Source of the DNA: Nitrososphaerota archaeon
Lineage (GTDB): Archaea; Thermoproteota; EX4484-205; JAAOZP01
Reading direction: 5' to 3'
Assembly (NCBI GenBank): GCA_011605725.1
Contig: JAAOZP010000012.1
Span: 96,001 to 160,000, forward strand
Length of the DNA stretch: 64,000 nucleotides
In this document: positions 1 to 58,807 of the stretch, one piece after another
How positions within the stretch are numbered: position 1 is the stretch's first letter
Layout of the letters: every line of letters starts with the position of its first letter
The notes under the pieces: generated by a model
Databases searched by the model: none
What the model saw: the letters and a program-made list of their open reading frames with translations, nothing else
Told to the model about the DNA's origin: nothing
Made by a program: the position numbers and the translations under genes

Positions 1-692
1 TGTATTTCTCCAAGCCTGCTTGAGCATTTTCTGAGAGCGTTTTCGACGCTTATCTCTCCAGAGTATCCGGCGAGAATATGGCCAGTATCTATGCAGATTG
101 ACGTGTCAAATCTTTCAGCGATTTCAAGCGTTTTTGAAAACGGGAACTCTATCGACTCTAATGCTATTCTACGCGGCTTCACGCCAGCATCAGCCAAGTA
201 TGAAACTATCTGCCCAATGCTTTTAGAAGCATTTAGAGCAAGCGTCTCGAAAAAGAGCTGCTTATAACCTGGGTTAATCCTCATCCTGTTAACCTCCGCA
301 GCCAAAGGACCTGCTACGTGAAGAACATAAGCGAGCGGTTTAAGATCCTCCAGCACTGTAACGGGCTTAATGACCGCGCTGACCGAGGCTGCCCGAATAT
401 CCTCAACCGGGGAGTCAAGCTCGATAGACCAGATGGGCAGGTGTGCGGAGAAAGTAATACCCTCCTCTCTCATGGAAACCCATTCATCCAGGTTCTTACT
501 CGAGAATGAAGCTGGAAGAACATAGTAAAGATCGGCGCTGAGCTCAACATGCTTAAAACCGTTTTCAACAGTCTTCCTAACCAGCTTTGAATAGTCAAGG
601 AACACTGAGCCATCTTCAAGCTCTAAACCTTCTAATACTCCCTCCAGCGAGAGAGCTGTAGCCCCAAGCCTTAAGCCAGCCTGGTTACCCAT
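1..692 (-). CDS. Xylose-isomerase-like TIM barrel protein, resembles cobamide-remodelling phosphodiesterase CbiR (3' end outside window)
   Basis: Not in the ORF track. Manual translation from ATG 692: MGNQAGLRLG...FKHVELS...SAHLPIWSIEL...YVLHVAGPLAAEV...IALESIEFP...ICIDTGHILAG...LGEI. E/H/E/DxGH metal motifs present; SD GAGGT upstream. Confidence 0.65.
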   Translation of the reverse strand, partial: MGNQAGLRLGATALSLEGVLEGLELEDGSVFLDYSKLVRKTVENGFKHVELSADLYYVLPASFSSKNLDEWVSMREEGITFSAHLPIWSIELDSPVEDIRAASVSAVIKPVTVLEDLKPLAYVLHVAGPLAAEVNRMRINPGYKQLFFETLALNASKSIGQIVSYLADAGVKPRRIALESIEFPFSKTLEIAERFDTSICIDTGHILAGYSGEISVENALRKCSSRLGEI

Positions 693-727
693 GCTACCTC
701 AACCAACTATATATGACGGTTATAAGA

Positions 728-1012
728 TTATATTATGGCCTCAGGCATCAAAACCACTCTACTAGTCTCGTTTAAAACGGTTGACTGAGCCTCATCCACC
801 GGGACCACCCTTCCGTCCAACACTATCGTAAAGTCCTCTGAGAGTCTTTCTGTTTCCCCGGAGAAAACCCTTTCCTTAAACCTCTTCCCATATTTATCCG
901 CCATTTTCTTAACCAGATCGTAAACAGTACTTCCTTCTTTCATATCGATAAGCGTCTCAGTAGACCCAACGATATCCCTAAACTGGCCTACGAGCTCCAC
1001 GCGAATCTTCAT
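728..1012 (-). CDS. MoaD/ThiS/SAMP-type ubiquitin-like beta-grasp protein lacking the C-terminal GG
   Basis: MKIRVELVGQFRDIVG...STVYDLV...IVLDGR...VVLMPEAII*. ATG 1012 is preceded by GGAGTG; the ORF track starts at 1033. Confidence 0.75.
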   Translation of the reverse strand: MKIRVELVGQFRDIVGSTETLIDMKEGSTVYDLVKKMADKYGKRFKERVFSGETERLSEDFTIVLDGRVVPVDEAQSTVLNETSRVVLMPEAII

Positions 1013-23075: not shown

Positions 23076-24140
23076 TTAAGCATCGCATTCACCATAATAA
23101 TTCATGAGGCTTTCGAAAGCCGTGCAAACCGCGTCTATGTTTTCAAGCGGAACATCTGCATGAATCTCTGAATACATCATTAATCCTCCTTTCTCAGAAC
23201 CGAGCTTGACAACAGCCTCATGAATGTGGCTCCTGATTTCCTCAGGATTGCCGAAGGGGACAAGGAGTTGACGGTCTATATCCAGGTCGATGCAAACCCT
23301 CCCCTTGATCTCCTCTCTAATATTGTCTAGCCCGTTAACCCGGTCCTGAATATTTAAGACTGAAACACCCGCTTCCATAAGGGCATCAGCCACCTCCATT
23401 ATGTGGCCGTCAGTATGCAGGTAAACCCTTATCCCTGAATCCCTGACTCTCCCGAATATTTTCCTGTATGAAGGATAGATAAACCTTCTGAACGTCTTAG
23501 GGCTTATTGGCATCCTGTCTTGAAGACCAAGATCGTCCCCGAAGGAAACCATGTCAACCCTGAGCCTGATGAATCTTTCAACAAGAGCAAGATTATACTC
23601 GGTCAACATCTCTATTAGTTTTTCAAGCTGACTAGTGTTTCTCACGAAGTCCATCATCAGGTTTTCAAATCCTCTCAGATAATAGAGCCTTTGGAAGAAG
23701 AAGCCGTGAGGCATACTTCCGACAATAACATCATCCATTTTCCTAGCATTTTCTATTCTCTCCTCAATCGCATCCCACGGGTCTAACCCACCACCCTCCT
23801 GAACAATGCCTTTCTCCGGATCGGGTAGACTATAGTGCGCAAAGTCAGACCAATCCTTCAAAGGGTGCTTCACAACCTGACCCTGCAACCCGCTTATGTT
23901 AAACCTCCATAAGCATCCGAAGTCATCCAAAACCTCTCTACCCTTCAACCTGCTTCCGAAGTTGTTAAAGTCGACACTTCCCTTCTTGAACGTTGGGAAA
24001 AGCCTAGGATGCCTAGCGAGCAGGTCCTCAAGCTTATCCCTATACTTGCTCCAAGTCGTTGGGAAAATTCCCACTCTACAAGGGATCCACCCGCAACCAT
24101 TCATGTCTATGACTCTAAGCTTTTTCACTCTGATGCTCAA
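23076..24140 (-). CDS. Uroporphyrinogen decarboxylase/MtaA-CmuA family protein
   Basis: D.FGC.W, LRGFENLMMD, GDDLG.Q, LHTDG, VPLENI. Confidence 0.88.
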   Translation of the reverse strand: MSIRVKKLRVIDMNGCGWIPCRVGIFPTTWSKYRDKLEDLLARHPRLFPTFKKGSVDFNNFGSRLKGREVLDDFGCLWRFNISGLQGQVVKHPLKDWSDFAHYSLPDPEKGIVQEGGGLDPWDAIEERIENARKMDDVIVGSMPHGFFFQRLYYLRGFENLMMDFVRNTSQLEKLIEMLTEYNLALVERFIRLRVDMVSFGDDLGLQDRMPISPKTFRRFIYPSYRKIFGRVRDSGIRVYLHTDGHIMEVADALMEAGVSVLNIQDRVNGLDNIREEIKGRVCIDLDIDRQLLVPFGNPEEIRSHIHEAVVKLGSEKGGLMMYSEIHADVPLENIDAVCTAFESLMNYYGECDA

Positions 24141-24249
24141 ATCGAAGGGTATGCTTCCCCCGCTAAGCTTTAAACATTTCTCGTTTAAAGCTGGAGCCTA
24201 AATCATAAGATTTAAAAGATTTAAGTATTATTGAGGAAAGCGAGGGAAA

Positions 24250-25359
24250 GTGTCAAGGAACCCGAATATAGGTAGACTGCTTAAAGTCCTTCTGAGAGAG
24301 GGAGAGCCGGATAGAGTACCTTTCTACGAGCATTTCGTCGATAACGAGGTTATTGAAGCCTTGACAGGTAAGCCTGTATCTAAGGCTTTAGCTGAAGAAG
24401 GCTTGAGCTCAGAGAAATACCTTAACACCTTGATTGAGTTCTATTCTAGGCTCGGGTACGACTATGTTCCGATGGAGGTTTCTCCTAAACTCCCCAGGAC
24501 TAATGTTCTTCAGACGAACGATGTCGCTTATCTTTCCCGTGGGAAAAGAACCTGGCAGGATGAGAACAAGGGGACGATTGAAACAATTGAGGATTTTGAA
24601 AAATACCCCTGGCCCAGTCCAGATGAAGCACTGGATTTTTCAGTGTTTGAAAGACTGAGGAGAAAACTGCCTGAAGGCATGGGGGTTGTTGGGGGAGTCG
24701 CCGGAGGATTCTTCGAGCATGTGAGCTGGCTGATGGGCATTGGAAAACTCTGCAGGGCCGTGTACTTGGACAAGAGGCTTGTTGAAAAAATGTTCAGCAA
24801 AATCGCCATGCTAATAATTTCCCTAGACGAGAGGATAGTTAAGGAAGGGTATGTTGATGCCTTGAGGATGGGTGACGACTTAGGGTATAAGACGGGCACG
24901 TTTCTGCCGCCCAGAATCCTACGGGAATACGTTTTCCCAAACTACAGGAGGCTCGCCGACTTGGCGCATTCGAAAGGACTTCCATTTATAATTCATTCCT
25001 GCGGAAACCTGTATACTCCTGACGAAACAGGGAGAACAGTGATGGATGATCTTGTGAACAGTGTTAGGATAGATGCTAAACATTCTTTTGAAGACAATAT
25101 AATGCCAGTATACGAGGTTAAGGAGAAGTATGGGAATAAGGTAGCGGTGCTGGGCGGTGTAGACATGAATAAGCTTGTTCAACTTCCTGAGAAAAGCCTG
25201 AGGGAGTACGTCAGGCTAATAATTAAGAAGTGCGCACCAGGAGGCGCATATGCTTTAGGCTCTGGAAACACGATAGCCAACTATGTGCCCTTAGAAAACT
25301 ATCTCGCGATGCTCGACGAAGGTTTTAGAAGCGGAGTATATCCGATAAGGATTAGTTGA
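24250..25359 (+). CDS. Uroporphyrinogen decarboxylase/MtaA-CmuA family protein
   Basis: EPDRVP, GDDLG, IHSCGN, LGGVD, GSGN, VPLENY. Confidence 0.9.
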   Translation: MSRNPNIGRLLKVLLREGEPDRVPFYEHFVDNEVIEALTGKPVSKALAEEGLSSEKYLNTLIEFYSRLGYDYVPMEVSPKLPRTNVLQTNDVAYLSRGKRTWQDENKGTIETIEDFEKYPWPSPDEALDFSVFERLRRKLPEGMGVVGGVAGGFFEHVSWLMGIGKLCRAVYLDKRLVEKMFSKIAMLIISLDERIVKEGYVDALRMGDDLGYKTGTFLPPRILREYVFPNYRRLADLAHSKGLPFIIHSCGNLYTPDETGRTVMDDLVNSVRIDAKHSFEDNIMPVYEVKEKYGNKVAVLGGVDMNKLVQLPEKSLREYVRLIIKKCAPGGAYALGSGNTIANYVPLENYLAMLDEGFRSGVYPIRIS

Positions 25360-25370
25360 GAAACAGGTTT

Positions 25371-26537
25371 TCAACACGCGTCAGGCTTAATCCTGTCTAA
25401 ATGTTTGAAGCGCTCTCTCCTTATCGGATACCTTCCAACCTTTTTAGCGTATTCAACCTCATACTTCAAGCGTTCAGGAGGCACTTTGGCATATGTCTCA
25501 CCGCCATTGTCGAAAACATAGCCGCCGCCGGGTGCAGCATGAAAAATGCATTTCTCAACCTCAAGCTCAATGCTTTCAAAAGATCCGTCTACTAGAACCC
25601 TCCAGTCAGCGTTGCCGTTGAAGAACACTTTCCCCTTAAACGCTTCACTAATTGTTTTAATATTGTTCTCAACACCTACATCAGCCTCCTTTATCCTGTA
25701 AACGTTTACAAGTATGTCTGTTATGTGATCCATGTGTGAATCCATGTGTAAATACCGGTGGTTGGCGCCGTGCCGCTCGTAAAGCCGAAGGTTATAAGGC
25801 ATCGCGAACTCCTCGTACATCCTCCTATTCAAGTAGCCTGAATGATCGTCAGCCAAGCCTAGGCTTCCTGGCCCCGACCCGGAAAGCTCATAATAGTATT
25901 CTTGGAGAACGTTGAAAGCCTCCTCCAGTTTTCGGAAAAGCCTATGCATTTCACTAGGATTCTCATAGAGCCACCGATATAGTTTTCCCGGGCCCAGTAG
26001 AGAGCCGGCTGCTGAAACCGGCGGATGTATCTGGAGCCGGCCTTCGACAGGAAGACCATCATAGTTTTTACGAACAAGCTCCCTGAACTTTTCAAGCTTC
26101 TCATAGTAGGCTTGAACCCCTTTGTGGCGATGCGGGTCCGGAACCTCCAGCTTATCAATATCCTCAAGAGTCTTAATGCGGGGAATTATCCATGGGCTGA
26201 GCCAAGGGTTTCTCTCATCAGGCATTTCAATCTTGCAGTCGAAAACAATGCCTTCAGATACGGCTCCAAGGTCTAGATGCACCCCTATACTTGTTAAATC
26301 ATCTTCAAGCCATTTCAGCCTCCATTTCAATCCTTTCACTTGAGCATCCAGCATTATACTCGTATCGTTATAGTATTCGGCGAAAGTATAGCCAAAAAGC
26401 ATCGCGTAATATGGTCCTCCCAGCCCTATGATAACCGGAACCCTATCAGGCTCCTTAAACTGAGCAGCTTTCTCAACGCGCTTCCTATTCTCCTCCAGGA
26501 GACTCGAATACTTGGCTTTGTTGAAAGGCTCCATCAA
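25371..26537 (-). CDS. Uroporphyrinogen decarboxylase/MtaA-CmuA family protein
   Basis: EPDRVPV, ADD, LHMDS, GN, APGGGYVF. Confidence 0.85.
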   Translation of the reverse strand: MMEPFNKAKYSSLLEENRKRVEKAAQFKEPDRVPVIIGLGGPYYAMLFGYTFAEYYNDTSIMLDAQVKGLKWRLKWLEDDLTSIGVHLDLGAVSEGIVFDCKIEMPDERNPWLSPWIIPRIKTLEDIDKLEVPDPHRHKGVQAYYEKLEKFRELVRKNYDGLPVEGRLQIHPPVSAAGSLLGPGKLYRWLYENPSEMHRLFRKLEEAFNVLQEYYYELSGSGPGSLGLADDHSGYLNRRMYEEFAMPYNLRLYERHGANHRYLHMDSHMDHITDILVNVYRIKEADVGVENNIKTISEAFKGKVFFNGNADWRVLVDGSFESIELEVEKCIFHAAPGGGYVFDNGGETYAKVPPERLKYEVEYAKKVGRYPIRRERFKHLDRIKPDAC

Positions 26538-26670
26538 TGATGTTGAATAAAGCGTCTTTTTAAAATTTAGCTGTTGAAGGAAAACATACTGGGAATGCGG
26601 TAGGCTTGTTTCTCAGTCGCGGCGATGCTCTTAAATACGTCTGGAGGCGAGTGGGAACCGTGACAGGCTG

Positions 26671-28629
26671 ATGAAGGATAGGGTCTTCCCAGTTTTCAAG
26701 AAACCCGGGAAGCTCAGGGTACTTGACGTCCGGCCGTATTCTTGGCATGAACAGATGACAATAACCTGCGCGCAAGGATTGATAAACCGTGTGAAGCCAA
26801 GGGTTTACCTAGTGTTCGACGATTATGTTGACAGACTATGGCTGTCAATCTACGGGAAAAGATACGGAGTGAAGCATGAGGAGGTTAACAATATTTACGA
26901 GCTACTGTCATCCTTTAGAAGGGAAATAGCAGGGTTCGTGGTTTACGATGAGAACATGCTGCATTCTGCAAACGTAGCAATGACGTATGGAAGCATCCAT
27001 AATGCGGTTCCAGCGTCCCCAGGGGTTGCGGAAAAGCTTTCGGAAGCAGGCTTCAGGAAGATAGCTGATTTCAGAGGCAAATGGGGAAATAGGATTGAAG
27101 CCTACGAATGGGCTTTTCAAAACCTGATGCAGCAGTGCAATAAAAGGATTGTTGGAAGCATGTGTGTAGACCCTCCTTTAACATCATTCACGAATAAGCA
27201 TCATGTTAGAGACTATCTCGTTGCAGTGAAAGCATTCTCCTTCGACCTCTCCACTAAGATTAGGGACCGCCGTGAAGTAGAATTGTTCGACAGGATACTT
27301 AGCTCTTTCGACTCGCTAGGAGTGGTTTTAGGATGGCACTGCATCAGGGACCTTGAGTCGGAGGCTGTTGCAAGAGCATCTGCAAACGGCTTCTTCGTGC
27401 TTTGCAACCTGCATTCTCCAAACCTGACTGTCCACTCAGGCGTGAAGACCAGTTTCAAGTTTAAACAGAGGCATGTTAAGAAAGTAATGCTGGAGGAAAA
27501 GGTTTACGTGGCCTTCATACAGTCTGATGGAGACGCTGTTTGGGCAATGAACAATTTTCAAAACCTTAACTGGCTTGACAGCCAGAGGGGAAGATTCCCC
27601 TACACATGGGAGATTCAACCCTTGCTGCTGGACCTAGCACCCGGGATTCTGGAACACTATTACAGGACTGCGACTTTAAACGATTATTTTATAGCTGGAC
27701 CTTCGGGAGCAGGCTATACTGCACCCAGTGTTAACAAGCGTCTTGACGAGTTCCTTGAGCACACTAAGAGGTATATGGAGGCATGTGATTTAAGGTCAAT
27801 ATTAATCATGAACCGTAACCCCCGGGTGGCCTACCAGGAGCTTGAAGACCCTAAGGTTTCTGAGGCTTTTGCTAAAAAGCTTGAAAACTGTTACGGGTTT
27901 CTGCATGGCTACTCAGGATCGGCTTTCGAGCCAGCGTTCTTCTTTAACAGTAAGCCGTATTTTCACACAACGCTCTACGCCTCCGCTTCAACAGATATTT
28001 TGAAAGAGCTGAAGCGGCTTGTGGAAGACTGCGAAACACGACCATTATTCGTCTCAATCCACGTTAGAGAAGAGGTTAAAATGCCAGTCTTACGCAGCGT
28101 GATAGAGAAGCTTGACAGTGAAACATATAGGGTTGTGAAAATGGATGAGTTCATGCTTACCTTGAAAAAGGCTTATGAAAAAGGCCTGTTTAAACAGGGC
28201 TTTTCAGAATCAGCCAGGGAATCTCTTAGGGAAAACGGTAAAACAATTTGGGAAACATACCACCGAAGAGTTGAACGCTTGGAGAGGCTTGTCGAAATGG
28301 ATGAGCAAAGAATGCTGGCGGAGTACAACTCGGACGGATACGGTTTCACCGTAGAGGAGTTGCCGGATCTTCTGGCTTACGATGCGGTTGAGATAGCACT
28401 ACGGCTTGTTCAGGCAGCGTTAAACATGAAGGGTGTTTACGTGAATAATGTTGAGAAGAGCGTTAAGGACTTTCTGAAGGAGTATAGCGAGCTTCCAGGC
28501 GCCCAGATTGTTGAAACAGTTTTCGAAACCTGGAGGAACTGGGAGAGAACCAGGAGTAGCATGGAGGAAGCAAGGACACTGGCGAGAAGAGTAGTTGGGT
28601 TTGCGAAGGCTCTTGAGGAGAAAATTTAG
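26671..28629 (+). CDS. GxGYxYP-family putative glycoside hydrolase
   Basis: QGLINR..PRVY, NLTVHSG, SDGD, RGRFP..W, GPSGAGYTAP. Confidence 0.8.
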   Translation: MKDRVFPVFKKPGKLRVLDVRPYSWHEQMTITCAQGLINRVKPRVYLVFDDYVDRLWLSIYGKRYGVKHEEVNNIYELLSSFRREIAGFVVYDENMLHSANVAMTYGSIHNAVPASPGVAEKLSEAGFRKIADFRGKWGNRIEAYEWAFQNLMQQCNKRIVGSMCVDPPLTSFTNKHHVRDYLVAVKAFSFDLSTKIRDRREVELFDRILSSFDSLGVVLGWHCIRDLESEAVARASANGFFVLCNLHSPNLTVHSGVKTSFKFKQRHVKKVMLEEKVYVAFIQSDGDAVWAMNNFQNLNWLDSQRGRFPYTWEIQPLLLDLAPGILEHYYRTATLNDYFIAGPSGAGYTAPSVNKRLDEFLEHTKRYMEACDLRSILIMNRNPRVAYQELEDPKVSEAFAKKLENCYGFLHGYSGSAFEPAFFFNSKPYFHTTLYASASTDILKELKRLVEDCETRPLFVSIHVREEVKMPVLRSVIEKLDSETYRVVKMDEFMLTLKKAYEKGLFKQGFSESARESLRENGKTIWETYHRRVERLERLVEMDEQRMLAEYNSDGYGFTVEELPDLLAYDAVEIALRLVQAALNMKGVYVNNVEKSVKDFLKEYSELPGAQIVETVFETWRNWERTRSSMEEARTLARRVVGFAKALEEKI

Positions 28630-28634
28630 AAGCT

Positions 28635-29018
28635 TCAGCATGCTAGAAGCAAAGCGATAGCTATCGCAACGTCACTCGTCCTATCATGGCTTAAGCTGAT
28701 TAAAACTCTTCTAGCACCCTTCTCGCGGAGAAGATTGAGAAGCGGTTCACTCATAACTATTCTGACCTCCGAGTTGACCGTTTCAGTCTCAACACCCCTC
28801 CACCCTAGCCGGCTTCTGCTAGCATGACCTATGGCTTTGAAAACCGCCTCTTTGGCTGCAAACCTTGCGGCTAGCTTCTCGTAGGGACAGCCCGATTGAA
28901 AACAGTATTCAATCTCCCTATCTGTGAAAACCCTTTTTAGAAAACGTTCACCGCCCTTCTCTATAGCCTTCTTAACCCTGTTTATCGAAACAGCATCAAC
29001 GCCAACCCCGGTTATCAA
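28635..29018 (-). CDS. acpS: Holo-[acyl-carrier-protein] synthase (4'-phosphopantetheinyl transferase)
   Basis: GVGVD, F..RVFT..E, LAARFAAKEAVFKA, ISLSHD. Confidence 0.93.
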   Translation of the reverse strand: MITGVGVDAVSINRVKKAIEKGGERFLKRVFTDREIEYCFQSGCPYEKLAARFAAKEAVFKAIGHASRSRLGWRGVETETVNSEVRIVMSEPLLNLLREKGARRVLISLSHDRTSDVAIAIALLLAC

Positions 29019-29032
29019 GCCTATCTGAAAGT

Positions 29033-29278
29033 TCAGCAGCCTGCTTGAGCCAGCTTCCTCTTTATGTATTCAACAACCTGACCCACTGTCTGGTTTTTCT
29101 CAGCCTCCTCCTCAGGAATCTCCAGGTTGAAAGCCTCTTCGAAGGCTGCGATCAGCTCAACAGTATCTATTGACTCAGCCATAAGGTCGTCCACGAGAGA
29201 AGTGTCGTCCTTCAAGCTTTCAACACTAACACGGAAGTGTTCAGCTATAATCTTCTTAACCTTCTCCTCAACCGACAT
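29033..29278 (-). CDS. acpP: Acyl carrier protein
   Basis: 81 aa, acidic; VKKIIAE...DDLMAESIDTVEL..AFEEAF.LEIP.EEAEK..TVG..V.YI; SD GGAGGT. Confidence 0.92.
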   Translation of the reverse strand: MSVEEKVKKIIAEHFRVSVESLKDDTSLVDDLMAESIDTVELIAAFEEAFNLEIPEEEAEKNQTVGQVVEYIKRKLAQAGC

Positions 29279-29279
29279 T

Positions 29280-30560
29280 CTACATACCTCCTCGCTCCAT
29301 TCTCATCTCCGCCTTCCTTATTAAAGTTTCCCTCTCCTCTCTAGTGTCCTGATATATTTTCTCAAGCATCCTGACGTAGCTCTCCGACATTACGACAGAC
29401 CTTCTCGACATGACTCTCTTCTCCGCTTCAACAGTCCTTCTGAAGCCAGCACCCCTTCTCAACCTTCCTTCAGCATACCAAGAGAAGCTTGGAATATACT
29501 TGGGAAGAACCTCCCCGCCTAGGAGGACGCATGCTACTCCGACAACGGTTCCAGTGTTCAGCAGGCAACCTATGCCGAACTTCGTATGGTCTCCTATGAA
29601 GCTGCCAACCTTCAGGTCACCAGTATCCATTAACCTACCTTTCACGTAGACGTCGACATTACTGTAATCATTCTTAAGATCACTATTAGTAGTCAGGGCG
29701 CCGATGTTAACCCATTCACCAACGTAAGCATGGCCCAGGAAACCAGTGTGATACTTGTTAGAATAACCGTGGATGATGCTTGCCTCAACCTCTCCCCCAA
29801 CCCTGCAGACAGGCCCTATCGTTGTCTCCTCCCTTATGTTTCCACGGACAATCCAAGTATTCCTCCCAATGTAGCAGGGTCCTTCGACACGGCTGAACGG
29901 ATATATGCGTGCATCCTCGTCAACTATTATTGGGCCGGAGCTAGTGTCTAGAACAACGAAAGGATGTATAACTGCATTTTTACTAACGTGAAGCATACTC
30001 TTTTCTCCGACGACAGCAACCTTCTCGTCTAAGGATCCAGCCCCCTCCTGCTTAGACCAGTATGCTTCAAAATCCTCCTTCAGCATTTCGTGATTATACT
30101 GGATAAGGTGCCACGGGTATTCTACCATCCGGGCGTCAACCTGCTTAACGCTCAGCTCAGACCTAAGATTCTCAACAGTCTTCTGAAAAGTATCTGAAAG
30201 TTTTCTTCTAACTGTTTCCCTCTTGACGTGAATATATACTATATCATCCTTGCACATCGCGATGACCTCGTCTTTCTCAAACGGGAGATGGCCGTGCTCA
30301 GGAAGCCACCTACCGTTAACCAGAATAGCATCATCCCTACTCAGATCCTGAAGGCTGTTCACAACAACGTCTCCAAGCCTTTCTCTCAGAACAGGAGCCA
30401 AATAGTCCCTTAGGAAGAAAGAGGTCTCGACACCGGGATGAGTCCTCCTGATTCTTTCAACAAGCGTCATCGACCCGCATCTCAGCTCGAAAGTAGCTCT
30501 TGTAAGCGTCAACGGGTAGAGAAGGTCATACTTCTCATCCTCGAACACGCAGACCTTCAA
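29280..30560 (-). CDS. GlmU-like protein of the 'alternative' (Bacteroidetes-type) family: degenerate nucleotidyltransferase domain + left-handed beta-helix acyltransferase
   Basis: LYPLTLTR..FELRCG, INGRW-like VNGRW, hexapeptide repeats, SNKYHTGFLGHAYVGEWVNIGA, SDLKNDY; no GGxGxR; SD GGTGAGG. Confidence 0.85.
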   Translation of the reverse strand: MKVCVFEDEKYDLLYPLTLTRATFELRCGSMTLVERIRRTHPGVETSFFLRDYLAPVLRERLGDVVVNSLQDLSRDDAILVNGRWLPEHGHLPFEKDEVIAMCKDDIVYIHVKRETVRRKLSDTFQKTVENLRSELSVKQVDARMVEYPWHLIQYNHEMLKEDFEAYWSKQEGAGSLDEKVAVVGEKSMLHVSKNAVIHPFVVLDTSSGPIIVDEDARIYPFSRVEGPCYIGRNTWIVRGNIREETTIGPVCRVGGEVEASIIHGYSNKYHTGFLGHAYVGEWVNIGALTTNSDLKNDYSNVDVYVKGRLMDTGDLKVGSFIGDHTKFGIGCLLNTGTVVGVACVLLGGEVLPKYIPSFSWYAEGRLRRGAGFRRTVEAEKRVMSRRSVVMSESYVRMLEKIYQDTREERETLIRKAEMRMERGGM

Positions 30561-30595
30561 TTCGCCTCACCACTGCCACAACATGGGATTCTTTT

Positions 30596-31807
30596 TTAAT
30601 GGTTTAATAAGTGTTTCCTAGTCTCCTCAGCTATAGCAAGCTCCTCATCAGTCGGTATAACTAGAACCTTAACCCTAGACTGCCTACTGCTTATCACCCC
30701 AGTTCTGCCCACTGTCACCCTATTCGCATCCTCGTCAATCATTAAACCTAGGAAACTCATGTTGTCACATATCATTCTCCTTATGAGAGGATCGTTCTCA
30801 CCTATCCCGCCTGTGAAAACAAGTATGTCGAGCCCACCCAACACTACGGTGTAAGCACCTATATACTTTTTAGCCCTGTAGGCAAAGATATCTAGGGCAA
30901 GCCTAGCCCTTTTGCTGCCAGCCTCAGCCTCCCTCTCCACATCCCTAATATCGTTGCTAACACCCGAGACACCAAGGAGCCCACTCTTCTTGTTAAGAAT
31001 GTCTTCAACCTCCCTGGGGGAGAAGCCCTCGCCGATCAGGTAGAAAACTATCGACGGGTCTATGTCCCCGCTTCTAGTACCCATGACCAGGCCTTCCAAC
31101 GGGGTGAAACCCATGCTAGTATCTATTGACCGTCCGTTTTTAATAGCGGTTATGCTGCAGCCGTTTCCGAGATGACAAGTCACCATCCTGAGCTTCTCAA
31201 GAGGCTTGCCAAGTATCTCGGCAGCCCTGTGAGCAACATACCTGTGGCTTGTCCCGTGAAACCCGTATCTCCTTATTCCGAACTTCTCGTAAAGCTCGTA
31301 AGGTATGGCGTAGAGATAAGCTGTCTCCGGCATAGTCTGGTGGAAAGCGGTGTCGAACACCGCTACCTGGGGGACTTTTGGAAGAAGGCTTCGCGCAGCC
31401 TCTATACCAGCTATGTTCGGAGGATTATGGAGCGGAGCCAGGTAAGCCCATTTCCTAAGGGCCTCCAGAACCTTTTCGTCGACAACCGTGGCTTCGAAGA
31501 AAGAATCCCCGCCGTGAACAACCCTGTGTCCAACTGCAACTATTTCCTCGAGTGAAGCAATAGCCTTCGGCTCAGCATCGAGGAGAACCCTGAGAATAAG
31601 CTCAAGGCCCTGCCTGTGGTTGGAAACATCAACCTCGCTTCTAGACACGATTCCACGAACCTCATGTTTTAAAACCGCCGGCCTGCTTCCGATTCTCTCC
31701 AGCAGGCCGCTGGCAACACCCGTCAATAAATCAGCGTCGAAAAGCTTGTACTTTATTGATGAGCTACCGCAGTTCACGACAAGTATTTTCCCCGGCAACC
31801 CTTTCAC
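30596..31807 (-). CDS. ackA: Acetate kinase
   Basis: [63 protein letters not shown]. Confidence 0.96.
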
Positions 31808-32808
31808 CCGGCTGACTGCGCTAGAACGGAGACAACAGCCATAGCTCCAACGATGTCTTCAACCTTAGCACCCCTTGAAAGATCGCTGACGGGCTTCTTG
31901 AAACCCTGGAGAATAGGACCGTAGGCTCCTGCTCCAGCCACGTGTTGAGTAAGCTTGTACGCTATGTTTCCAGCATTCAGATCGGGAAATATAAGGATGT
32001 TAGCCCTGCCGGCTACCGGGCCGAGATCTTTCATCTTCTTCCTGGCAACATCCATCACGAGCGCCGCGTCAGCCTGAAGCTCCCCGTCAACCTTGATCTC
32101 GGGCGCCCGCTTCTTAACGATCTCGGTTGCTCGAACCACCTTATCCACAAGAGGATGTACTGCACTACCCTTGGTTGAGAATGAGAGCATCGCTACCCTC
32201 GGCTCCCAGCCTAGGAGCCTACTGACGCTTCTAGCTGTGGATACAGCTATGTCCGCAAGCTGCTCAGGAGTTGGATCCGGATTTACCGCAGCGTCAGCGT
32301 AAACCAGGACACCGTTTTCACCAATATTCTTGTTCCCGGTCTCCATTATGAAGAAGCTTGAAGGTGTTTCAACCCCCTTCTCATACCCAATTACAAGATG
32401 GCTGGCTTTAATAACGTTTGCAGTAGTGGTGGAGGCACCGGCAACCATCGCGTCAGCCAAACCCGTCTTAACCATCATGCAGGCAAAATAAAGCGGCTTG
32501 CTGAGTATTCTTCTCGCAACAGCCTCGCTGACACTCTTCTCCTCCCGGGCCCTGCAATACTCCTTGACAAAACCGTCTAAATAGCCGGAGGCCGCTAAGT
32601 CTACGACTTCAACACCGGTTAAGGATAAGCCCAGCGAAGCAGCGTTCTTCTCCACGGTTTCTCTCGAGCCTAACAGTATTGGTTTTGCAATACCCTGCTC
32701 CACGGAGGCGGCGGCTGCCCTCAGTATCCTTTCATCCTCAGGCTCAGGTAGAATAATCCTCATAGGCTTCTCCCTAGCCCTGTTCTTTATCAGCTGGATT
32801 ACTGACAA
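31804..32808 (-). CDS. pta: Phosphate acetyltransferase
   Basis: [52 protein letters not shown]. Confidence 0.95.
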
Positions 32809-33009
32809 TCTGCGGCTGGAAACCCGGAGAATTTAATAAACTTTTTGCGTTAAGCGTCTCATCACCTGGTGTGCAGCATTGCTGGGCGTAACACTATCTT
32901 AGGCGGAACATGGTTCATCTTTCTAATCTTCAGCTGCATGCATCAACATTAACTCAGAAATAACTGGTTAGAAAGCCTTTTAAAAGGAGGAACCAGTAGT
33001 ATTTTCGGG

Positions 33010-34074
33010 ATGAAAATAAGGTCCATAACGCTTTTCGCAGCATCCGGGGAAATGCAGAGCGTTAGAGAACGCGTCTCAAACCTGGGCTCAATGCTTTCAT
33101 TCAACATAGAATCAATGTTTCTGTCGGAAAGCGTTTGGAGCACGAGGGTTGCGCTTCCACCCTTAAGCGAGCAGGAAACCCCTATGAAGAGAGCCTCTCA
33201 GCTTCTTGATCTAAACGTTGTAAACTATGCTTCAATAGGTCAGGTTGAGGATGCGCATCCGGCTTTAGAGGAGGTTGTGGAGGTTGTTGAAAACGGGCTC
33301 TACGTTTCTATAAACATGAGGAGCACAGATAGGATTAAGAGTATTGAAAAGGTTTTGAGAAAAGCATGTGAGAAAAACCCTTCTAACGGAAGCCGGATAT
33401 GTGTCAACATGGGTGGAGACATATTTACACCATATTTTCCTTCAGCATGCAACCTGCATGGTGAAGAAGGATTAGCAATATCTCTACTGTATCCCAGTCT
33501 CCTCAGACACAAGCATTTAAACCAGTTTCAAGACATTCTCGCCGAAGTTTACGCTTCAACCGAAAAAGTTGGTCTAAAGCTTTCCGAAAGGCTTGGGATC
33601 AATTACTACGGGGTTGACGCCTCACTGTCACCCTGGATGGAGGAGAGCGTCGCAGAGATCATTGAGTTCGCCTCAGGGGTTAGAATACCGCTTCCAGGAA
33701 CCCTCAGCACGATTAGAGAGATAAACAGCCTTATAAGGAGTGCTGTTAAAACGGCTGGGATAAGGGCGACAGGCTACAATGAGGTCATGCTGCCGGTTGC
33801 TGAAGATAATGTTTTGAAGGAGAGGGTTGCGGCGGGAGACGTTAAGCTCAGGGACCTTGTATACTTGGCTTCAGCATGCGTCTCCGGAGTCGATATGGTT
33901 GTGGTCTCAGACAATGCTCCTAGCAGGATTATAGAGGGAGTTTTTAAAGACCTTTTTGAAATAAGCATGTTGAAAGGCAGAGCCACCGGGTTGAGAATGA
34001 TTTTCGCATCAGCAGAACCGGGTGAAACAGTTAAACTTAATTTCTTCGGGTGGACACCCGTTATATCGCCCTAA
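33010..34074 (+). CDS. DUF711-family protein
   Basis: MKIRSIT, TPYFP, GVDASLSP, GYNEVMLPVAED, ACVSGVDMV. Confidence 0.8.
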   Translation: MKIRSITLFAASGEMQSVRERVSNLGSMLSFNIESMFLSESVWSTRVALPPLSEQETPMKRASQLLDLNVVNYASIGQVEDAHPALEEVVEVVENGLYVSINMRSTDRIKSIEKVLRKACEKNPSNGSRICVNMGGDIFTPYFPSACNLHGEEGLAISLLYPSLLRHKHLNQFQDILAEVYASTEKVGLKLSERLGINYYGVDASLSPWMEESVAEIIEFASGVRIPLPGTLSTIREINSLIRSAVKTAGIRATGYNEVMLPVAEDNVLKERVAAGDVKLRDLVYLASACVSGVDMVVVSDNAPSRIIEGVFKDLFEISMLKGRATGLRMIFASAEPGETVKLNFFGWTPVISP

Positions 34075-34108
34075 AGCTTTATATTCAGAGCAGGAGTATT
34101 AGGAGGTG

Positions 34109-34321
34109 ATGGGGATAGTTCACAGGCCGGATGATATTCTTAACAGGAGAAGACGTGTAGAGGTTGCTTTAAGAGACCTTAACCCCGGGGTTAGAGAGCT
34201 TGTTTTAAACATAGTGAACTCCTGGAAAGGAAGCAAATCCATGGAGGATTTGAAGCGTGCCGTCGGTGAAGAAAAAGCTGTTAGAATTGTTGAAGAGCTA
34301 AGCCTGCCTGTAGACCAGTAG
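34109..34321 (+). CDS. Small hypothetical protein
   Basis: Strong SD AGGAGGTG before ATG 34109 and a TATA box about 34078; natural helical composition. Confidence 0.7.
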   Translation: MGIVHRPDDILNRRRRVEVALRDLNPGVRELVLNIVNSWKGSKSMEDLKRAVGEEKAVRIVEELSLPVDQ

Positions 34322-34425
34322 GCTGCGATAAACCATTTGAAGGTTAACGCTACCCACATCCGTATCATCGATACGTGTCAACAGCTTACGGTGAGGAAAA
34401 CGGTTTCTCACAGATATTCCGAGGC

Positions 34426-35940
34426 TTAGCTTTTCTCAGCCGCGGATTTTTCAATCATAGAGCAGAAACGGACATAGGCTTCTTCGACAGCGTCATCATG
34501 CTCCGGCTCGAATTCTCTCAATTCAAACGAGTCTCCAACTATCCGCCTAATATCCTTATGTGATTTAACAAAACCCATAGCGTATGCTTGCATAAGGATG
34601 TTGCCGATAGATGTTGCCTCCACCGGTCCAGCAACCACTTTAACCCCGGTGAAATCAGCAGTAAGCTGGTTCAGCAACCAGTTTCTAGAACCGCCTCCGA
34701 TAATGTTAATCCGGTTTATTTTTCTCCCAGTCAGTTCCATTATCCTTTCCAGAACAAGCCTGTATTTGAAGGCCAGGCTTTCAAGTATTACTCTAACAAG
34801 CTCACCCTCATCCCTAGGTTTCTCTTGGCTAGTTTCCTCTAAGTAGCTCACTATCTCCTCAACCATGTTTGCCGGAGCCATGAACCTCTCGTCGTCAGGA
34901 TCGATGAAGGCTATGAATCTTCTCGACTTGCTTGCAATCCTTGTTAGCTCATCGTAAGAATACTCCCGTCCTTGGCCCGCCCAGATCCTCCTGCATTGTT
35001 GAACCAGCCACATCCCCTGAACGTTACGCAGAAACCTGAATTTTCCGAAAACACCCCCCTCATTAGTGAAGTTATACTCGAGTGATTTTCTGCTTATTAT
35101 TGGCTTATCCACCTCAACGCCTACTAGGGACCATGTTCCGGAACTAATGTAGGCTGAGCCTTCATCCTCCAGAAGCGCCGCCGCGACAGCTGAAGCCGTG
35201 TCATGGCAGGCAGGGGCTACGATTGAAACCCTGCTGCTAATGCCAAGCTCGCCAGCAAGACTCGTAGAAATCCCTTCAAGCACGGTTCCCGGTTTAACAA
35301 TCTCGGGCAGAAAATGGGTTGGAATCCCGAGGTTCTCTAAGAGTTCATAATCCCAGTTGTTCTTAGAAGGGTTGAGGAACTGGGTTGTCGTAGCATCTGT
35401 AAACTCAGAGACCTTGACGCCGGATAGCCAGTAGTTGAACAAGTCCGGCATCATCAGGAACCTGCTTGCAGCGTTGAGAATCGAAGACCTGCTTAAAACC
35501 AGCGAGTACAACTGGTAGAGGGTGTTCAGCCGGAGAAACTGTATACCTGTTCTGAAGTAGATTTCCTCCCTCGAAACCTTTTTAAAGATCTCTTCAAAAG
35601 CTCGCTCCGTCCTAGGATCCCTATAATGGTGAGGGTTTCCGAGGAGCTCGCCATTGCTGTCGAGAAAAGCAAAATCAACTCCCCACGTGTCGACACCGAT
35701 GGACTCAAGGCTTCCGTTAAGCTTTGAATACGCCAGTGAAGCAGCATTCTTAATTTCACCCCATATCCTTAAAACATCCCAGAAAATACTTTCCCCCACC
35801 TTCACCGGTATGTTTGGAAACCTGTAAACCTCCTCCACCGTTATCTTTCTCTCAGCCAGTATTCCGATTAAGGCTCTACCGCTCTCGGCCCCAAGGTCGA
35901 AGGCTAGAAAGGCAGGATGCCCCATGAGTCTTAAAAACAT
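34426..35940 (-). CDS. rhaB: Rhamnulokinase (FGGY carbohydrate kinase)
   Basis: FDLGAESGR, GVDTWGVD, YRDPRT, HDTASA, ISSGTWSL, FTNEGG, GPVEAT. Confidence 0.9.
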   Translation of the reverse strand: MFLRLMGHPAFLAFDLGAESGRALIGILAERKITVEEVYRFPNIPVKVGESIFWDVLRIWGEIKNAASLAYSKLNGSLESIGVDTWGVDFAFLDSNGELLGNPHHYRDPRTERAFEEIFKKVSREEIYFRTGIQFLRLNTLYQLYSLVLSRSSILNAASRFLMMPDLFNYWLSGVKVSEFTDATTTQFLNPSKNNWDYELLENLGIPTHFLPEIVKPGTVLEGISTSLAGELGISSRVSIVAPACHDTASAVAAALLEDEGSAYISSGTWSLVGVEVDKPIISRKSLEYNFTNEGGVFGKFRFLRNVQGMWLVQQCRRIWAGQGREYSYDELTRIASKSRRFIAFIDPDDERFMAPANMVEEIVSYLEETSQEKPRDEGELVRVILESLAFKYRLVLERIMELTGRKINRINIIGGGSRNWLLNQLTADFTGVKVVAGPVEATSIGNILMQAYAMGFVKSHKDIRRIVGDSFELREFEPEHDDAVEEAYVRFCSMIEKSAAEKS

Positions 35941-48171: not shown

Positions 48172-49254
48172 TTGTTAATGTTGAGGACTGTAGAATCAAG
48201 CTACCCGAACAAGGATATTAGGGAGAACTATTTGAAGGCTTTAGAATATCGTTACCCAGAATGGATTCCGTGTGGGGTTAACTTTTTACCAGGCGTATGG
48301 AAGAAGCACCGCGGGAAACTGGAGGACATCGTGGCTAGACACCCGCTTATCTTCGGCCATTATGAGAAGGACGGTAGGAATTTTGACGAGATGCCTCCTG
48401 TTTATCGCCCAGGATATTTCACGGATAACTGGGGATGTGTTTGGTATACTGTTAAAGAGGGTTTAGAGGGACAGGTTGTTGGACACCCGTTAGCCGACTG
48501 GAAAGCGTTTGAAAACTATCAGCCTCCAGACCCGTTGTTGAAGACGGAGAGAGGAGAAAGAGGAGTAGAATATTGGGAGAAAACTAAGAAGGCTTTCGCA
48601 GAGCGTAGGGAGAAGGGTCTTCTAAGGGTCGGCGACGGGGAACGCCTTTTCGACCGATTATACTTCTTAAGGGGCTTTGAAAACCTGATGAGGGACATTG
48701 TTACGGATGACCCTAACCTTCCAAGGCTTATAAACATGCTTCTAAATTACGAGACTAGGCTCGTTGAGAAGTGGCTTGAAATCGGAGTGGATATCATGAG
48801 CTTCCACACAGACATAGGGACGCAGAACGGTTTGATGATAAGCCCATTGAAATTCCGGAAATACTTTAAACCAATGTTTAAAAAGCTTTTCACCCTCTGC
48901 AGGAATGCGGGTGTACATGTTTATCTCTCCTCCGACGGGCGGCTGCTGGATATTGTTGACGACCTGGTTGAATGTGGAGTCTCCGTCCATGATCCGCAGC
49001 TCCGAGCGAACACGCTGGACGGGATTGCTAGAGCTTACAAGGGCAAGCTGTGCGTCGACCTTGACTTAGACAGGCAGACACTCCCATTCTGCAGTCCCCA
49101 GGATATTCGTAGAATGGTTGAGGAGAGCATTGGAAAACTGTATTTGCCAGAGGGCGGTTTAATGATGAAAGGAGAGATCGGGCCGGATGTTCCATTGGAA
49201 AACGTCGAGGCTCTGTGTCAAGCCATGGAGGATTTCTGCATCAGGCTAAGATAG
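48172..49254 (+). CDS. Uroporphyrinogen decarboxylase/MtaA-CmuA family protein
   Basis: DNWGCVW, LRGFENLMRD, TDIGTQ, LSSDG, VPLENV; close paralog of 23076..24140. Confidence 0.88.
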   Translation: MLMLRTVESSYPNKDIRENYLKALEYRYPEWIPCGVNFLPGVWKKHRGKLEDIVARHPLIFGHYEKDGRNFDEMPPVYRPGYFTDNWGCVWYTVKEGLEGQVVGHPLADWKAFENYQPPDPLLKTERGERGVEYWEKTKKAFAERREKGLLRVGDGERLFDRLYFLRGFENLMRDIVTDDPNLPRLINMLLNYETRLVEKWLEIGVDIMSFHTDIGTQNGLMISPLKFRKYFKPMFKKLFTLCRNAGVHVYLSSDGRLLDIVDDLVECGVSVHDPQLRANTLDGIARAYKGKLCVDLDLDRQTLPFCSPQDIRRMVEESIGKLYLPEGGLMMKGEIGPDVPLENVEALCQAMEDFCIRLR

Positions 49255-49296
49255 TTTTCAACCCTTTGTAAGAAGTGTTTCACGTAGATAGGGAGC

Positions 49297-50514
49297 CTAC
49301 GGTTTTAACGGGTAGAAGCCGTTTTCATAAGCCGACCTGTAGGCGGCGAGAATGTTTTTCAGGAGGCACGTTAGCCTGAATATTGTGAACCTGGTTGAAA
49401 ACGTATCCACCATTCCTAGCGAAAACCAGAATATTCTTTTTCACATGCTTGTAAACCTCCTCCGGACTACCGGCGTGAAACACCTTCTGAGTGTCCACGC
49501 CTCCACCCCAGAAAGCAACCTGGTCGCCGAACTCTTTCTTCAACCTCTCCGGCTCCATGTTTCTCGCAGAGATTTGAACAGGGTTCAGTATGTCGACGCC
49601 AGCATCTATCAGGTCCGGGATAAGATCATGTATTGAGCCGCAGGAGTGGAGGAAGACGAATATTCTCGAATGCTTCTTCACGTATTGAAAAAGCTCTGTG
49701 TGACACGGCTTTAAGAGTTCCCTGTATGTTTTCGGTGAAACCTGGGGTCCCGTCTGAATTCCGAGATCATCCCCGAAACCTATGACCTGCACGTGGTCTT
49801 TCAAGGCTTCAACATATTTCTTCACATTATGCATTAAAACACTCATCATCCTGTCAAGAATCGCTGAGGCCAAGCTCCTTCTGGAGGAAAGATCTATGAG
49901 CCAGTTTGACCACCCTCTCAGGCCCTGACCCCACTCGTGAACACTTCCCGCGCCGAAGAAGTGTAAAGCGAAACCCGTGGATGCTCCGCTCTCCCCCTTA
50001 GGCTTGAAACATACTCATCCCCTACTTTATGGCTCTCCCAATCATAATTCTTCAACGCTTCAGGACTCTCTGCTTTCTCAAGAGGATGATAGACACTGTC
50101 GAAGTATAGGCTGCCCTTAGGCATTTTTGAAACCACTATTCCTCTTCCGTTTCTAATAACCCATCCGCCGGCACCATCCGGCTCAGGGTTAAACCAGGCC
50201 GGGACCTCGCACCTAGTTCCATCCGGCAGAAACTATTCTCTCCACGTTTCGTCTCCGGGTCCGCATGGTTCAAGCGTCCTGGTGAGGGGAATCACGTCTA
50301 CTTTAAACAATTCAAGTATCTCTTTCTCAGGCTCAGCTAACTGTTGGCCAACATCGTAAACCCTTACAACACCCTTCTCCAAGCCGAGGTGTTTCTTCAG
50401 TCTAGCGTAAGCTATTGCCATTATACCGGTTGAAGGCATTGAGCCTAAGTCTATTGGAACCCTGTCAGGCTCCTCACGCCTCAGCGCCGTCAGAACCCTA
50501 GTTCTAGAGTCCAA
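49297..50514 (-). pseudogene. Disrupted URO-D/MtaA-family gene
   Basis: Continuous family signal (EPDRVPIDLG...GDDLG.Q...LHSCG...HNIQANVPPE) broken by an in-frame TAG (50233-50235), a frameshift near 49980 and a +1 A in an A-run near 49355. Confidence 0.85.
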
Positions 50515-54818: not shown

Positions 54819-56414
54819 CTATACTAACTGTTTAAGCCTTCTTATATGACCTTTTCCAACACCTCGAACAGCACACCCGTTTTTCAAATACTCGATTATC
54901 TTCCGGTCGTCGACTATGTTAAAAGCATCCACGATTGCAGGCGTACCCCCGTTCATTCTTAGGACTTCCTCAGGCTCTAGTTGAAGGTAAACCTTATGCC
55001 TGACGGCGAAGACTATTGCGTCAACCCCTTTAACAACCTTCTCTAAATCCTGCTCAACCCTCAGGTTCTTCAAATCCTCCTGATTCCTGAATTGCTTTGC
55101 CAGTGAGAACTCGTCTTCATCCTGCTGGGCGAACTCCGGCCAAACCTTCACGTAAGGGTCGTGAACCCTTATTTCAAAACCCATTTCCCTAAGCCTTCTT
55201 ATCAGGATCTCTGAAGGAGAATGACGAGTATCACCTATATCAGCAAGGTAAGAGGCTCCGAGAACCGCTACAGTCGAGCCTTTAATATCCCTACCCGCCT
55301 CTCTAAGAGCATCCGCAACCAGATCGGCGGTGTGAAGCGGCATTTTATCATTAATGTTTATCGCTTCAATAGTGTACGGCACGCCTTCGCAACATCCGAA
55401 TATTTCCTTGAAAGCCCAGTTAGCCAGCACGCTATCCTTCGTTAAACAATACCCGCCTACGCCTAATCCAGGGTTCATAATGTTACTGTGGGTTGGGCGA
55501 ACCCTTATTCCGGGTAGAACCTTCCAAAGATCTATACCTATTTCCTCAGCCCTAAGCGTCCAATCATATATGAAGGCTATGTTAACAGCCCTGTAGGAGT
55601 TTTCAAGTACCTTCGCAACTTCGGAGGCAGTAGTATTTTCAGCCTCGTAGAGAGGGTAAGTTATCACTCGCGACAAGAATCTTCGCGCAAGCTCCGCACT
55701 CTCCGCATCTATCCCAGCCCATGTTCTCCAGAAGTCCCTTATCGAGCTGACGTATTGTCTGCCCGGCATAACCCTTTCATAGGAATGAGCTAGATGCGGC
55801 GGCTTAGTTATACCCCTTTTCTCCCTCTCCTCCTTGAGAATCGGAAGCACGATTCTCTCGCAGGTTCCAGGGGGCACGGTGGTTTCAACCAGAACGAGAG
55901 CATCCTCCTTCATATACTTCCCTATCGTTCTGCAGCCGGCTTTGAAAGCATCCAGCTCAACATATCCCGCCTCAGCCTTTCCGAAAACAGGTTTCACAGC
56001 GTCAAGCTGTATGTCGACAACAATTATGTCGGCAAGACCCAGCGACTCCTCGCAGCCAGTAGCCATCAGGGTCTTCTTTTCAAGAACCGTCCTCCGGAAT
56101 ATTTCAGGTATCTCCGGATCCTCTGCACTCACAGGGGGTTTCCCCGAGTTTATGTACGGGATTTTCCAGTAGGATCTTTTAGAAGGCCTCTGATAGCCAA
56201 GTACGAAGTACGGAGAATCCTTCGCATCCGCGACGACGGCAGCCATAACCGCTCCGACGAAACCAAGCCCCATGACAGTAACTATCTCTCTACCGTGGGC
56301 ACGCTGATCCTCAACTATCCCCACTATTCTCGCAAACTCAGCCTTCAACTCATCTTTAGACGGAATACTATATGTAACGCCGTCCGGTGAAACAGAATAC
56401 TCTGGCATTTCCAA
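54819..56414 (-). CDS. Nucleotide-sugar 6-dehydrogenase (UDP-Glc/UDP-HexNAc dehydrogenase family)
   Basis: GLGFVG, ETTVPPGT, ERVMPG, KVLENSYR..NIAF, GVGGYCLTKD, D.RHSPS. Confidence 0.9.
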   Translation of the reverse strand: MEMPEYSVSPDGVTYSIPSKDELKAEFARIVGIVEDQRAHGREIVTVMGLGFVGAVMAAVVADAKDSPYFVLGYQRPSKRSYWKIPYINSGKPPVSAEDPEIPEIFRRTVLEKKTLMATGCEESLGLADIIVVDIQLDAVKPVFGKAEAGYVELDAFKAGCRTIGKYMKEDALVLVETTVPPGTCERIVLPILKEEREKRGITKPPHLAHSYERVMPGRQYVSSIRDFWRTWAGIDAESAELARRFLSRVITYPLYEAENTTASEVAKVLENSYRAVNIAFIYDWTLRAEEIGIDLWKVLPGIRVRPTHSNIMNPGLGVGGYCLTKDSVLANWAFKEIFGCCEGVPYTIEAININDKMPLHTADLVADALREAGRDIKGSTVAVLGASYLADIGDTRHSPSEILIRRLREMGFEIRVHDPYVKVWPEFAQQDEDEFSLAKQFRNQEDLKNLRVEQDLEKVVKGVDAIVFAVRHKVYLQLEPEEVLRMNGGTPAIVDAFNIVDDRKIIEYLKNGCAVRGVGKGHIRRLKQLV

Positions 56415-56425
56415 CCCTCCGGATG

Positions 56426-58759: not shown

Positions 58760-58807
58760 GCTGAAAACCGTGGAGTAAGAGCTTTTTTAAAGTTTGAGGA
58801 GAGTTTT

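Follow-up and report, generated by a model that had tools for sequence, protein, structure and literature searches.

A putative acetyl-transfer module with its own acyl carrier protein in Brockarchaeota, other archaea and bacteria

Carrier proteins dedicated to acetyl groups are known from catabolism, where CitD of citrate lyase and MdcC of malonate decarboxylase use phosphoribosyl-dephospho-coenzyme A (CoA) in a closed cycle. The acetyltransferase of Escherichia coli GlmU uses acetyl-acyl carrier protein (acetyl-ACP), which is supplied by MadA (Whaley et al. 2021, PMC8666670). In archaea, ACP and the holo-ACP synthase AcpS are rare, and they have been ascribed to bacterial transfer and linked to fatty acids (PMC3533463). 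The present analysis concerns a five-gene operon that encodes both proteins, pta-ackA-LbH gene-acp-acpS, in a stretch of 64,000 nucleotides (nt) of Nitrososphaerota archaeon contig JAAOZP010000012.1 (hereafter, the window); the LbH gene encodes a GlmU-like beta-helix protein. The operon represents a cross-domain module composed of a GlmU-like beta-helix acetyltransferase, a dedicated ACP, a glucosamine-6-phosphate deaminase and an acetyl-thioester enzyme, a slot filled by Pta and acetate kinase (AckA), by an ADP-forming acetate-CoA ligase (ACD) or by Re-citrate synthase. That acetyl groups are channelled through the ACP is well supported and probable, because matched sequence signatures in Pta, ACD, the LbH protein and ACP point to it together with a weak Pta-ACP co-fold. 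For every step there is a precedent, be it GlmU acting with acetyl-ACP, the chemistry of PlsX or the carriers of citrate lyase, and the module would be an undescribed variant of carrier-protein acetyl transfer. An earlier note on this DNA, which knew of no description of such a route in archaea, overlooked that an LbH enzyme working with acetyl-ACP had already been demonstrated in E. coli GlmU (PMC8666670).

The locus resembles the GlmU case in having a beta-helix amino-sugar-phosphate acetyltransferase that, as proposed here, accepts acetyl-ACP. In E. coli, however, the ACP is shared with fatty-acid synthesis (FAS) and charged from malonyl-ACP, whereas here it is private and no FAS is found; the genetic partners of the enzyme are a deaminase and one of Pta/AckA, ACD or citrate synthase, and its N-domain is degenerate. 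Unlike CitD and MdcC, an AcpS-type phosphopantetheine ACP would here connect separate enzymes. The deaminase partner also recalls the catabolism of N-acetylglucosamine 6-phosphate (GlcNAc-6-P) by NagA and NagB, and the reading favoured below implies an equal net sugar conversion, but the acetyl group would stay a thioester instead of being hydrolysed, and NagA often coexists with the module. New here are the occurrence in an archaeon in which no FAS is found and the sequence changes that match one another across Pta, ACD, the LbH enzyme and ACP.

The five genes lie on the minus strand at the positions that the earlier note gave, and its description of the layout (co-oriented genes, a 4-nt pta/ackA overlap, GTGA, followed by intergenic gaps of 35, 1 and 14 nt, Shine-Dalgarno (SD) sites and a TATA-like box) is confirmed from the sequence:

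32833..32847, minus strand: run resembling a B-recognition element (BRE) plus TATA-like box, 32 nt ahead of the pta start; a putative promoter, judged from sequence and relatives
31804..32808, minus strand: pta, 334 amino acids (aa), module-type Pta, over the TIGR00651 cut-off
30596..31807, minus strand: ackA, 403 aa, acetate kinase, over the TIGR00016 cut-off (516 bits)
30565..30571, minus strand: SD site GGTGAGG preceding the LbH gene, from sequence
29280..30560, minus strand: LbH gene, 426 aa, GlmU-like, TIGR03991 at 385 bits
29286..29291, minus strand: SD site GGAGGT preceding acp, within the end of the LbH gene, from sequence
29033..29278, minus strand: acp, 81 aa, dedicated ACP, over the TIGR00517 cut-off
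28635..29018, minus strand: acpS, 127 aa, holo-ACP synthase, passing TIGR00516 and PF01648; single copy found by BLAST of its own genome

The TATA-like box is TTTATTAA (32833-32840) and the purine-rich BRE-like run occupies 32841-32847; this element is conserved in five relatives, whereas the upstream DNA diverges. The first gene, pta, is probably leaderless. The closest records are metagenome-assembled genomes (MAGs) of Brockarchaeota, with 84-89% identity and flanking genes identical in kind. Two other hot-spring or sediment assemblies, from other runs, span window positions 26000-35000 in one piece at >99% identity, and GC content is flat across the locus; a chimeric contig, the doubt raised by the earlier note, is therefore rejected, and the operon is a genuine one in the genome of a hot-spring member of the Brockarchaeota. 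At window position 26599, in an intergenic gap, three other assemblies have one additional T.

The ACP carries Ser36 (codon 29171-29173) in an AESI motif, a residue present in 63 of 63 module ACPs, with AcpS adjoining, and it is the only PP-binding protein found in the genome, in single copy. Such a protein could be a relic of transferred bacterial fatty-acid, lipid or lipoate synthesis, or the product of a chimeric contig, an idea favoured by the rarity of archaeal ACP and AcpS and their ascription to bacterial transfer (PMC3533463), and by the matches in 20 of 401 Thermoproteota genomes. This explanation is largely refuted and must be considered very improbable. Searches with hidden Markov models or BLAST found no FabD, FabF, FabG, FabH, FabZ, PlsX or lipoate/biotin ligase in the 93%-complete genome, so the lack of fab and plsX genes, first claimed for the window, now holds for the whole genome and no type II FAS explains the ACP. 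The sole ketoacyl-synthase match is a mevalonate thiolase beside HMG-CoA synthase, not a real ketoacyl synthase. With none of these genes found, a FAS, lipoate or PlsX role for the ACP is rejected. Furthermore, independent assemblies span the locus, 19 of the 20 module-like Thermoproteota ACPs follow an LbH gene, and the FAS ACPs fall in one separate group: Glu precedes the Ser in 57/63 module ACPs and 0/30 FAS ACPs, Met44 occurs in 2/63 versus 30/30, Ala at 44 in 58/63 versus 0/30, and the FAS-type motif DSLD..ELVM is not matched by the module ACP. Most bacterial carriers of the module possess a separate FAS ACP, in fabG-acpP-fabF. As side observations, the lipoate/biotin ligase family PF03099 is missing from this genome and present in 14/14 control genomes, and a classical FabG-type reductase gave no BLAST match in it; the Thermoproteota ACP away from an LbH gene (L243:1489-3221, genome G403) adjoins an adenylate-forming-like gene and may be a different system or contamination.

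The neighbourhood recurs in related Brockarchaeota MAGs and widely beyond, in shuffled order. In a survey of 80 loci of the LbH gene, with incomplete MAGs as comparison genomes, ACP lies beside the LbH gene in at least 58, nagB in 46, pta and/or ackA in 44, a Re-citrate-synthase-like gene in 13 and ACD in 10, and in no case does pta/ackA share a locus with ACD or Re-citrate synthase. The earlier note overlooked the key partner, the glucosamine-6-phosphate deaminase (46/80 loci). Loci without nagB often have a SIS-only, GlmD-like gene beside the module, and in Thermofilaceae and some Brockarchaeota SIS-type deaminase-like genes substitute for it. Archaeal carriers are found in Brockarchaeota, Bathyarchaeia, Thermofilaceae, Wolframiiraptor, Hadarchaeota and Thermococci, but the majority are bacteria (Planctomycetota, Poribacteria, Omnitrophota, Latescibacterota and others), so that the supposed archaeal speciality did not hold. 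On Bacteroidota-type contigs the LbH gene is replaced by DUF4954, a distant beta-helix family, beside ACP, citrate synthase or ACD, and nagB; one such contig (L311:3041-10486) has two module-type ACPs, one with ACD and the other with DUF4954, Re-citrate synthase and nagB. At L071:2475-3401 and L083:9813-10715 the gene after the module ACP looks AAC(3)-like by eye and may be a fourth type of partner; module Pta, ACD and citrate synthase were not found in these two genomes. A literature search found no paper on the module, on Brockarchaeota plus ACP, on the function of TIGR03991 or DUF4954, or on acetyl-ACP with a deaminase, and the Brockarchaeota paper mentions ACD and ACS in its main text but is silent there on Pta, AckA and ACP (PMC8065059).

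The Pta of the window passes TIGR00651 (339 versus a cut-off of 311 bits), and the family motifs of AckA are intact. In comparison with the Methanosarcina thermophila enzyme (PDB 1qzt/2af4), it keeps S311/R312/D318 and R88 as equivalents of S309/R310/D316, which we take from solved structures to be catalytic, and of R87, presumably a CoA-binding arginine like R133. It differs in having K134 at the R133 position and R100/K104 in place of E99/D103, on the helix after R87. Module Ptas form a separate, ACP-tied subfamily (the canonical Ptas group apart on the tree, support 100/99) that gains basic residues at 100, 104, 257 and 260 with the catalytic residues retained: Arg or Lys is found at 100 in 40/43, at 104 in 43/43 and at 260 in 32/43, against 1/10, 1/10 and 0/10 of the canonical Ptas, a set of ten taken from the same genomes. 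Arg at the R133 position occurs in 11/43 module and 8/10 canonical Ptas; the R87 equivalent is kept. Acidic ACPs dock on basic patches. When co-folded with ACP, the Pta dimer reached an interface score (ipSAE) of 0.57, the best control scoring 0.00. The calibration of the tool rates this as weak, with 7 of the 80 solved complexes and both mismatches that passed lying at 0.60 or below; the contacts agree by 96%, and the predicted local distance difference test (pLDDT) of the ACP is 85+. In Brockarchaeota the presence of Pta parallels that of ACP almost exactly. Four Ptas distant from an LbH gene also bear the module signature; three of these sit on split contigs or adjoin nagB/ackA, and the fourth belongs to a genome whose module is of the citrate-synthase type.

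Given these sequence features, a conserved gene order and an ACP that FAS does not explain, the best reading is that Pta interconverts acetyl-phosphate and acetyl-ACP, and that the LbH enzyme transfers the acetyl group. The idea that Pta acts on ACP in the manner of PlsX may hold in part: the proposed acyl-ACP/acyl-phosphate chemistry and the related fold are shared with PlsX, and the basic patch and the weak co-fold (0.57 versus 0.00) agree with it, but the protein is a TIGR00651 Pta, PF02504 has no match anywhere in the genome, the acyl group would be short and there is no PlsY context.

The module ACDs show parallel changes in their CoA-binding domain. Three motifs without variation among 19 other ACDs, with roles that we assume from solved structures, are altered (GAS to G[VA]T, G47 to P, N67 to A or S) in 10/10 module ACDs versus 0/19, the phospho-His being retained, and two Bacteroidota ACDs beside ACP, examined afterwards, have the same changes (2/2; total 12/12). 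A coordinated basic patch is also present in the module citrate synthase, which was identified via homologs named Re-citrate synthase; a distinct clade of it exclusive to module loci is not supported, the tree having five changes. An ATP-citrate-lyase-like source of acetyl-ACP, made of ACD plus Re-citrate synthase, is unlikely, as each is found without the other in many genomes. Neither module Pta nor module ACD was found in four Re-citrate synthase genomes (G075, G087, G090, G062), and in G081 only canonical Pta was found, which leaves the LbH enzyme as the candidate producer of acetyl-ACP.

The LbH protein exceeds the cut-off of TIGR03991 (alt_bact_glmU) over its full length (385 versus 225.3 bits, profile 1-394) and stays below those of the bifunctional GlmU families (TIGR01173, 23 versus 367 bits; TIGR03992, 101 versus 292 bits). 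It belongs to the ACP-linked clade of TIGR03991, with a nucleotidyltransferase-like but degenerate N-domain. Its best match in sequence and fold is the archaeal GlmU ST0452 (TIGR03992; PDB 5z09, 2ggo), with which it shares the two-domain plan (AlphaFold2 model, pLDDT 94; template-modelling score 0.62) and a histidine, H271, invariant in the beta-helix (alignment set A3) and aligned with H308. It differs from ST0452 in its low identity (~19%), in the lack of GxGxR and in the changes Y311 to F and N331 to D, at residues whose roles we assume from GlmU. Because GxGxR is found in 0/99 homologs, nucleotidyl transfer is unlikely and an NDP-sugar step is not indicated; of the earlier proposal of acylation of an amino-sugar phosphate or NDP-sugar, acetyl transfer to or from the former is the part favoured here. 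The acceptor would be a 6-phosphate amino sugar rather than a 1-phosphate, since the deaminase is linked and mutases are rare in the loci.

ACP-linked LbH proteins carry D298, K354 and a basic C-terminal segment (net charge +3.6, versus -0.25 in ACP-less ones), all missing in the ACP-less paralogs; the basic tail is present in one member of the ACP-less clade that does have an ACP neighbour. Two genomes of one Brockarchaeota genus (L153:5212-10604 and L148:5180-8106) differ by an ACP-acpS-ackA-pta block that separates the LbH gene from the gene after it, and only the LbH protein of the genome with the block has a basic tail. A second TIGR03991 copy of this genome (contig C6, L103:6198-7436) has Tyr in place of the His, and a deletion follows its beta-helix motif; low-scoring copies like it occur in G002, G006, G007 and G016, and the copy in G008 is intact. 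In a Phycisphaerae genome (L157:1984-6625) a very long NagB-containing open reading frame (ORF) lies ahead of an ACP-less paralog.

It could be argued that all these enzymes use CoA, the ACP being a regulator, a reservoir or a carrier of another acyl group, and that the operon merely groups acetate and amino-sugar genes. The R87 equivalent is kept and Arg or Lys stands at the R133 position in 23/43 module Ptas, ACP-less TIGR03991 paralogs adjoin deaminases in genomes without ACP, and L025-L027 and L029 have a module Pta, yet only FAS-type ACP was found. Such a reading is improbable in view of the coordinated basic patches in Pta, LbH enzyme and citrate synthase, the altered CoA-domain motifs of ACD, the invariant serine of an ACP with its AcpS retained, and the near-exact tracking of ACP by Pta in Brockarchaeota. 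In addition, this genome encodes an AMP-forming ACS and two ACDs, which already serve acetyl-CoA, so a CoA-type Pta/AckA would be redundant.

As for the direction, we favour, with a probability of about 0.5, a reversible acetyl shuttle that is insulated from CoA and would serve mainly for capture, conserving the acetyl group of GlcNAc-phosphate in the form of ATP or citrate. AcpS would prime the private ACP, and the LbH enzyme would pass the acetyl group from GlcNAc-phosphate (6-phosphate likelier than 1-phosphate) to holo-ACP; the ACP-adapted Pta would then yield acetyl-phosphate, and AckA would yield ATP and acetate. NagB would drain glucosamine-6-phosphate to fructose-6-phosphate and ammonia, pulling the uphill first step, and the private carrier would hold its pool at low acetyl charge, separate from acetyl-CoA. 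What the sequences show directly are the genes, their linkage and the specialisation of the paralogs; ACP as acetyl donor or acceptor, the sugar substrate and the direction are inferred from these. Capture is favoured because Re-citrate synthase, which replaces Pta/AckA in many loci, can only consume an acetyl thioester, because three carriers (G082, G087, G089) also have full GlmS and full GlmU, because no AMP-forming ligase motif occurs in the 80 loci, and because a carrier of its own would help most where an uphill step has to be kept apart from the acetyl-CoA pool. The presence of MurQ and NagB in this genome also speaks for capture. The acetate-to-sugar direction first proposed is thus one option only; the Pta/AckA form would also be reversible, supplying GlcNAc-phosphate, which may explain the lineage without GlmS.

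Several points weigh against capture as the main purpose. NagA is over cut-off in this genome and in 33/75 tested genomes, and the hydrolase would compete; simple replacement of NagA is rejected, as it is common among carriers without mutual exclusion. Neither full GlmS nor canonical GlmU is detectable in this genome, and the His is lost from its other TIGR03991 copy, so that the window enzyme may be required for synthesis. The energy change, estimated roughly from textbook values, runs from about -30 to +25 kJ/mol across conditions; the Pta/AckA form would be near equilibrium, and ATP gain feasible only at low acetate, ammonium and phosphorylation potential. Lastly, nagB lies outside this operon: it is found on contig C20, outside the window, and encodes a protein that shares 70% identity with a bacterial NagB linked to the module. 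The ten module ACDs are closely related to one another, the genomes compared are MAGs and incomplete, and the residue roles in Pta, ACD and GlmU are assumed from solved structures.

A biosynthetic ACP channel would run the other way: acetate and ATP would give acetyl-phosphate, then acetyl-ACP, then N-acetylation of glucosamine phosphate from a reversed NagB, a glutamine-independent route to GlcNAc-phosphate and UDP-GlcNAc replacing GlmS and the GlmU acetyltransferase. It is downhill at normal ATP, and E. coli GlmU prefers acetyl-ACP (Michaelis constant 20 versus 400 μM; PMC8666670). NagA is present in this genome, where no intact acetyltransferase of the family other than that of the window is found; of the 39 bacterial LbH carriers, 20 are without GlmS and only 5 have full GlmU, and the genes flanking the module in L031, L033 and L039 include NTP-transferase and kinase genes. 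Within the genus, seven ACP-positive genomes are without full GlmS and seven ACP-negative genomes have it, but this split coincides with one clade boundary, about one event, and is rejected as statistical proof. Synthesis also leaves unexplained the Re-citrate synthase partner and, as ACP-less paralogs exist, the need for a private carrier; the missing AMP-forming ligase motif (0/80) and the carriers with complete GlmS and GlmU count against it too. It is the main rival, a possible but less probable direction than capture.

If capture is correct, the module may represent a widespread, energy-conserving breakdown of GlcNAc, in which the private ACP replaces CoA in Pta, ACD and Re-citrate synthase, the product of de-N-acetylation is ATP or citrate and not free acetate, and nearly all Thermoproteota ACP genes found are covered; this broader proposal is tentative, somewhat short of even odds. 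In either direction, the module would account for archaeal ACP and AcpS without recourse to lipids (19 of the 20 ACP-bearing Thermoproteota genomes sampled), and it predicts ACP-specific Pta, ACD and citrate synthase, which in many uncultured phyla would carry the wrong label of ordinary acetate metabolism, as well as testable functions for two orphan families, TIGR03991 and DUF4954. A catabolic module would provide up to one extra ATP for each GlcNAc that chitin and cell-wall debris release in anoxic habitats, and an anabolic one a glutamine-independent route to a cell-envelope precursor. The five proteins are small, soluble and amenable to in vitro assay.

Elsewhere in the genome, MurQ (N-acetylmuramic acid 6-phosphate etherase; contig C3, L100:1090-2082) is over cut-off and suggests use of bacterial cell-wall sugars by this archaeon, and NagA belongs to a gene run (contig C16, L104:5620-10142) that also includes an MFS-like transporter, a ChbG-like deacetylase and a gene resembling two-domain acetyltransferases of the AAC(3) family. 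An ARAGORN call of tRNA-Ile with a 2.4-kb intron at window 1-804 (C1:94333-96804), over coding genes that include an ACD just before the window, is probably false. Several genes of the MtaA/uroporphyrinogen-decarboxylase family lie at 23076-26537 and 48172-50514, where the ORFs 49328-49873 and 50236-50514 resemble fragments, and at 54822-60379 a nucleotidyltransferase-like gene (777 aa, weak hexapeptide match) is clustered with a galactokinase-like and a nucleotide-sugar-dehydrogenase-like gene.

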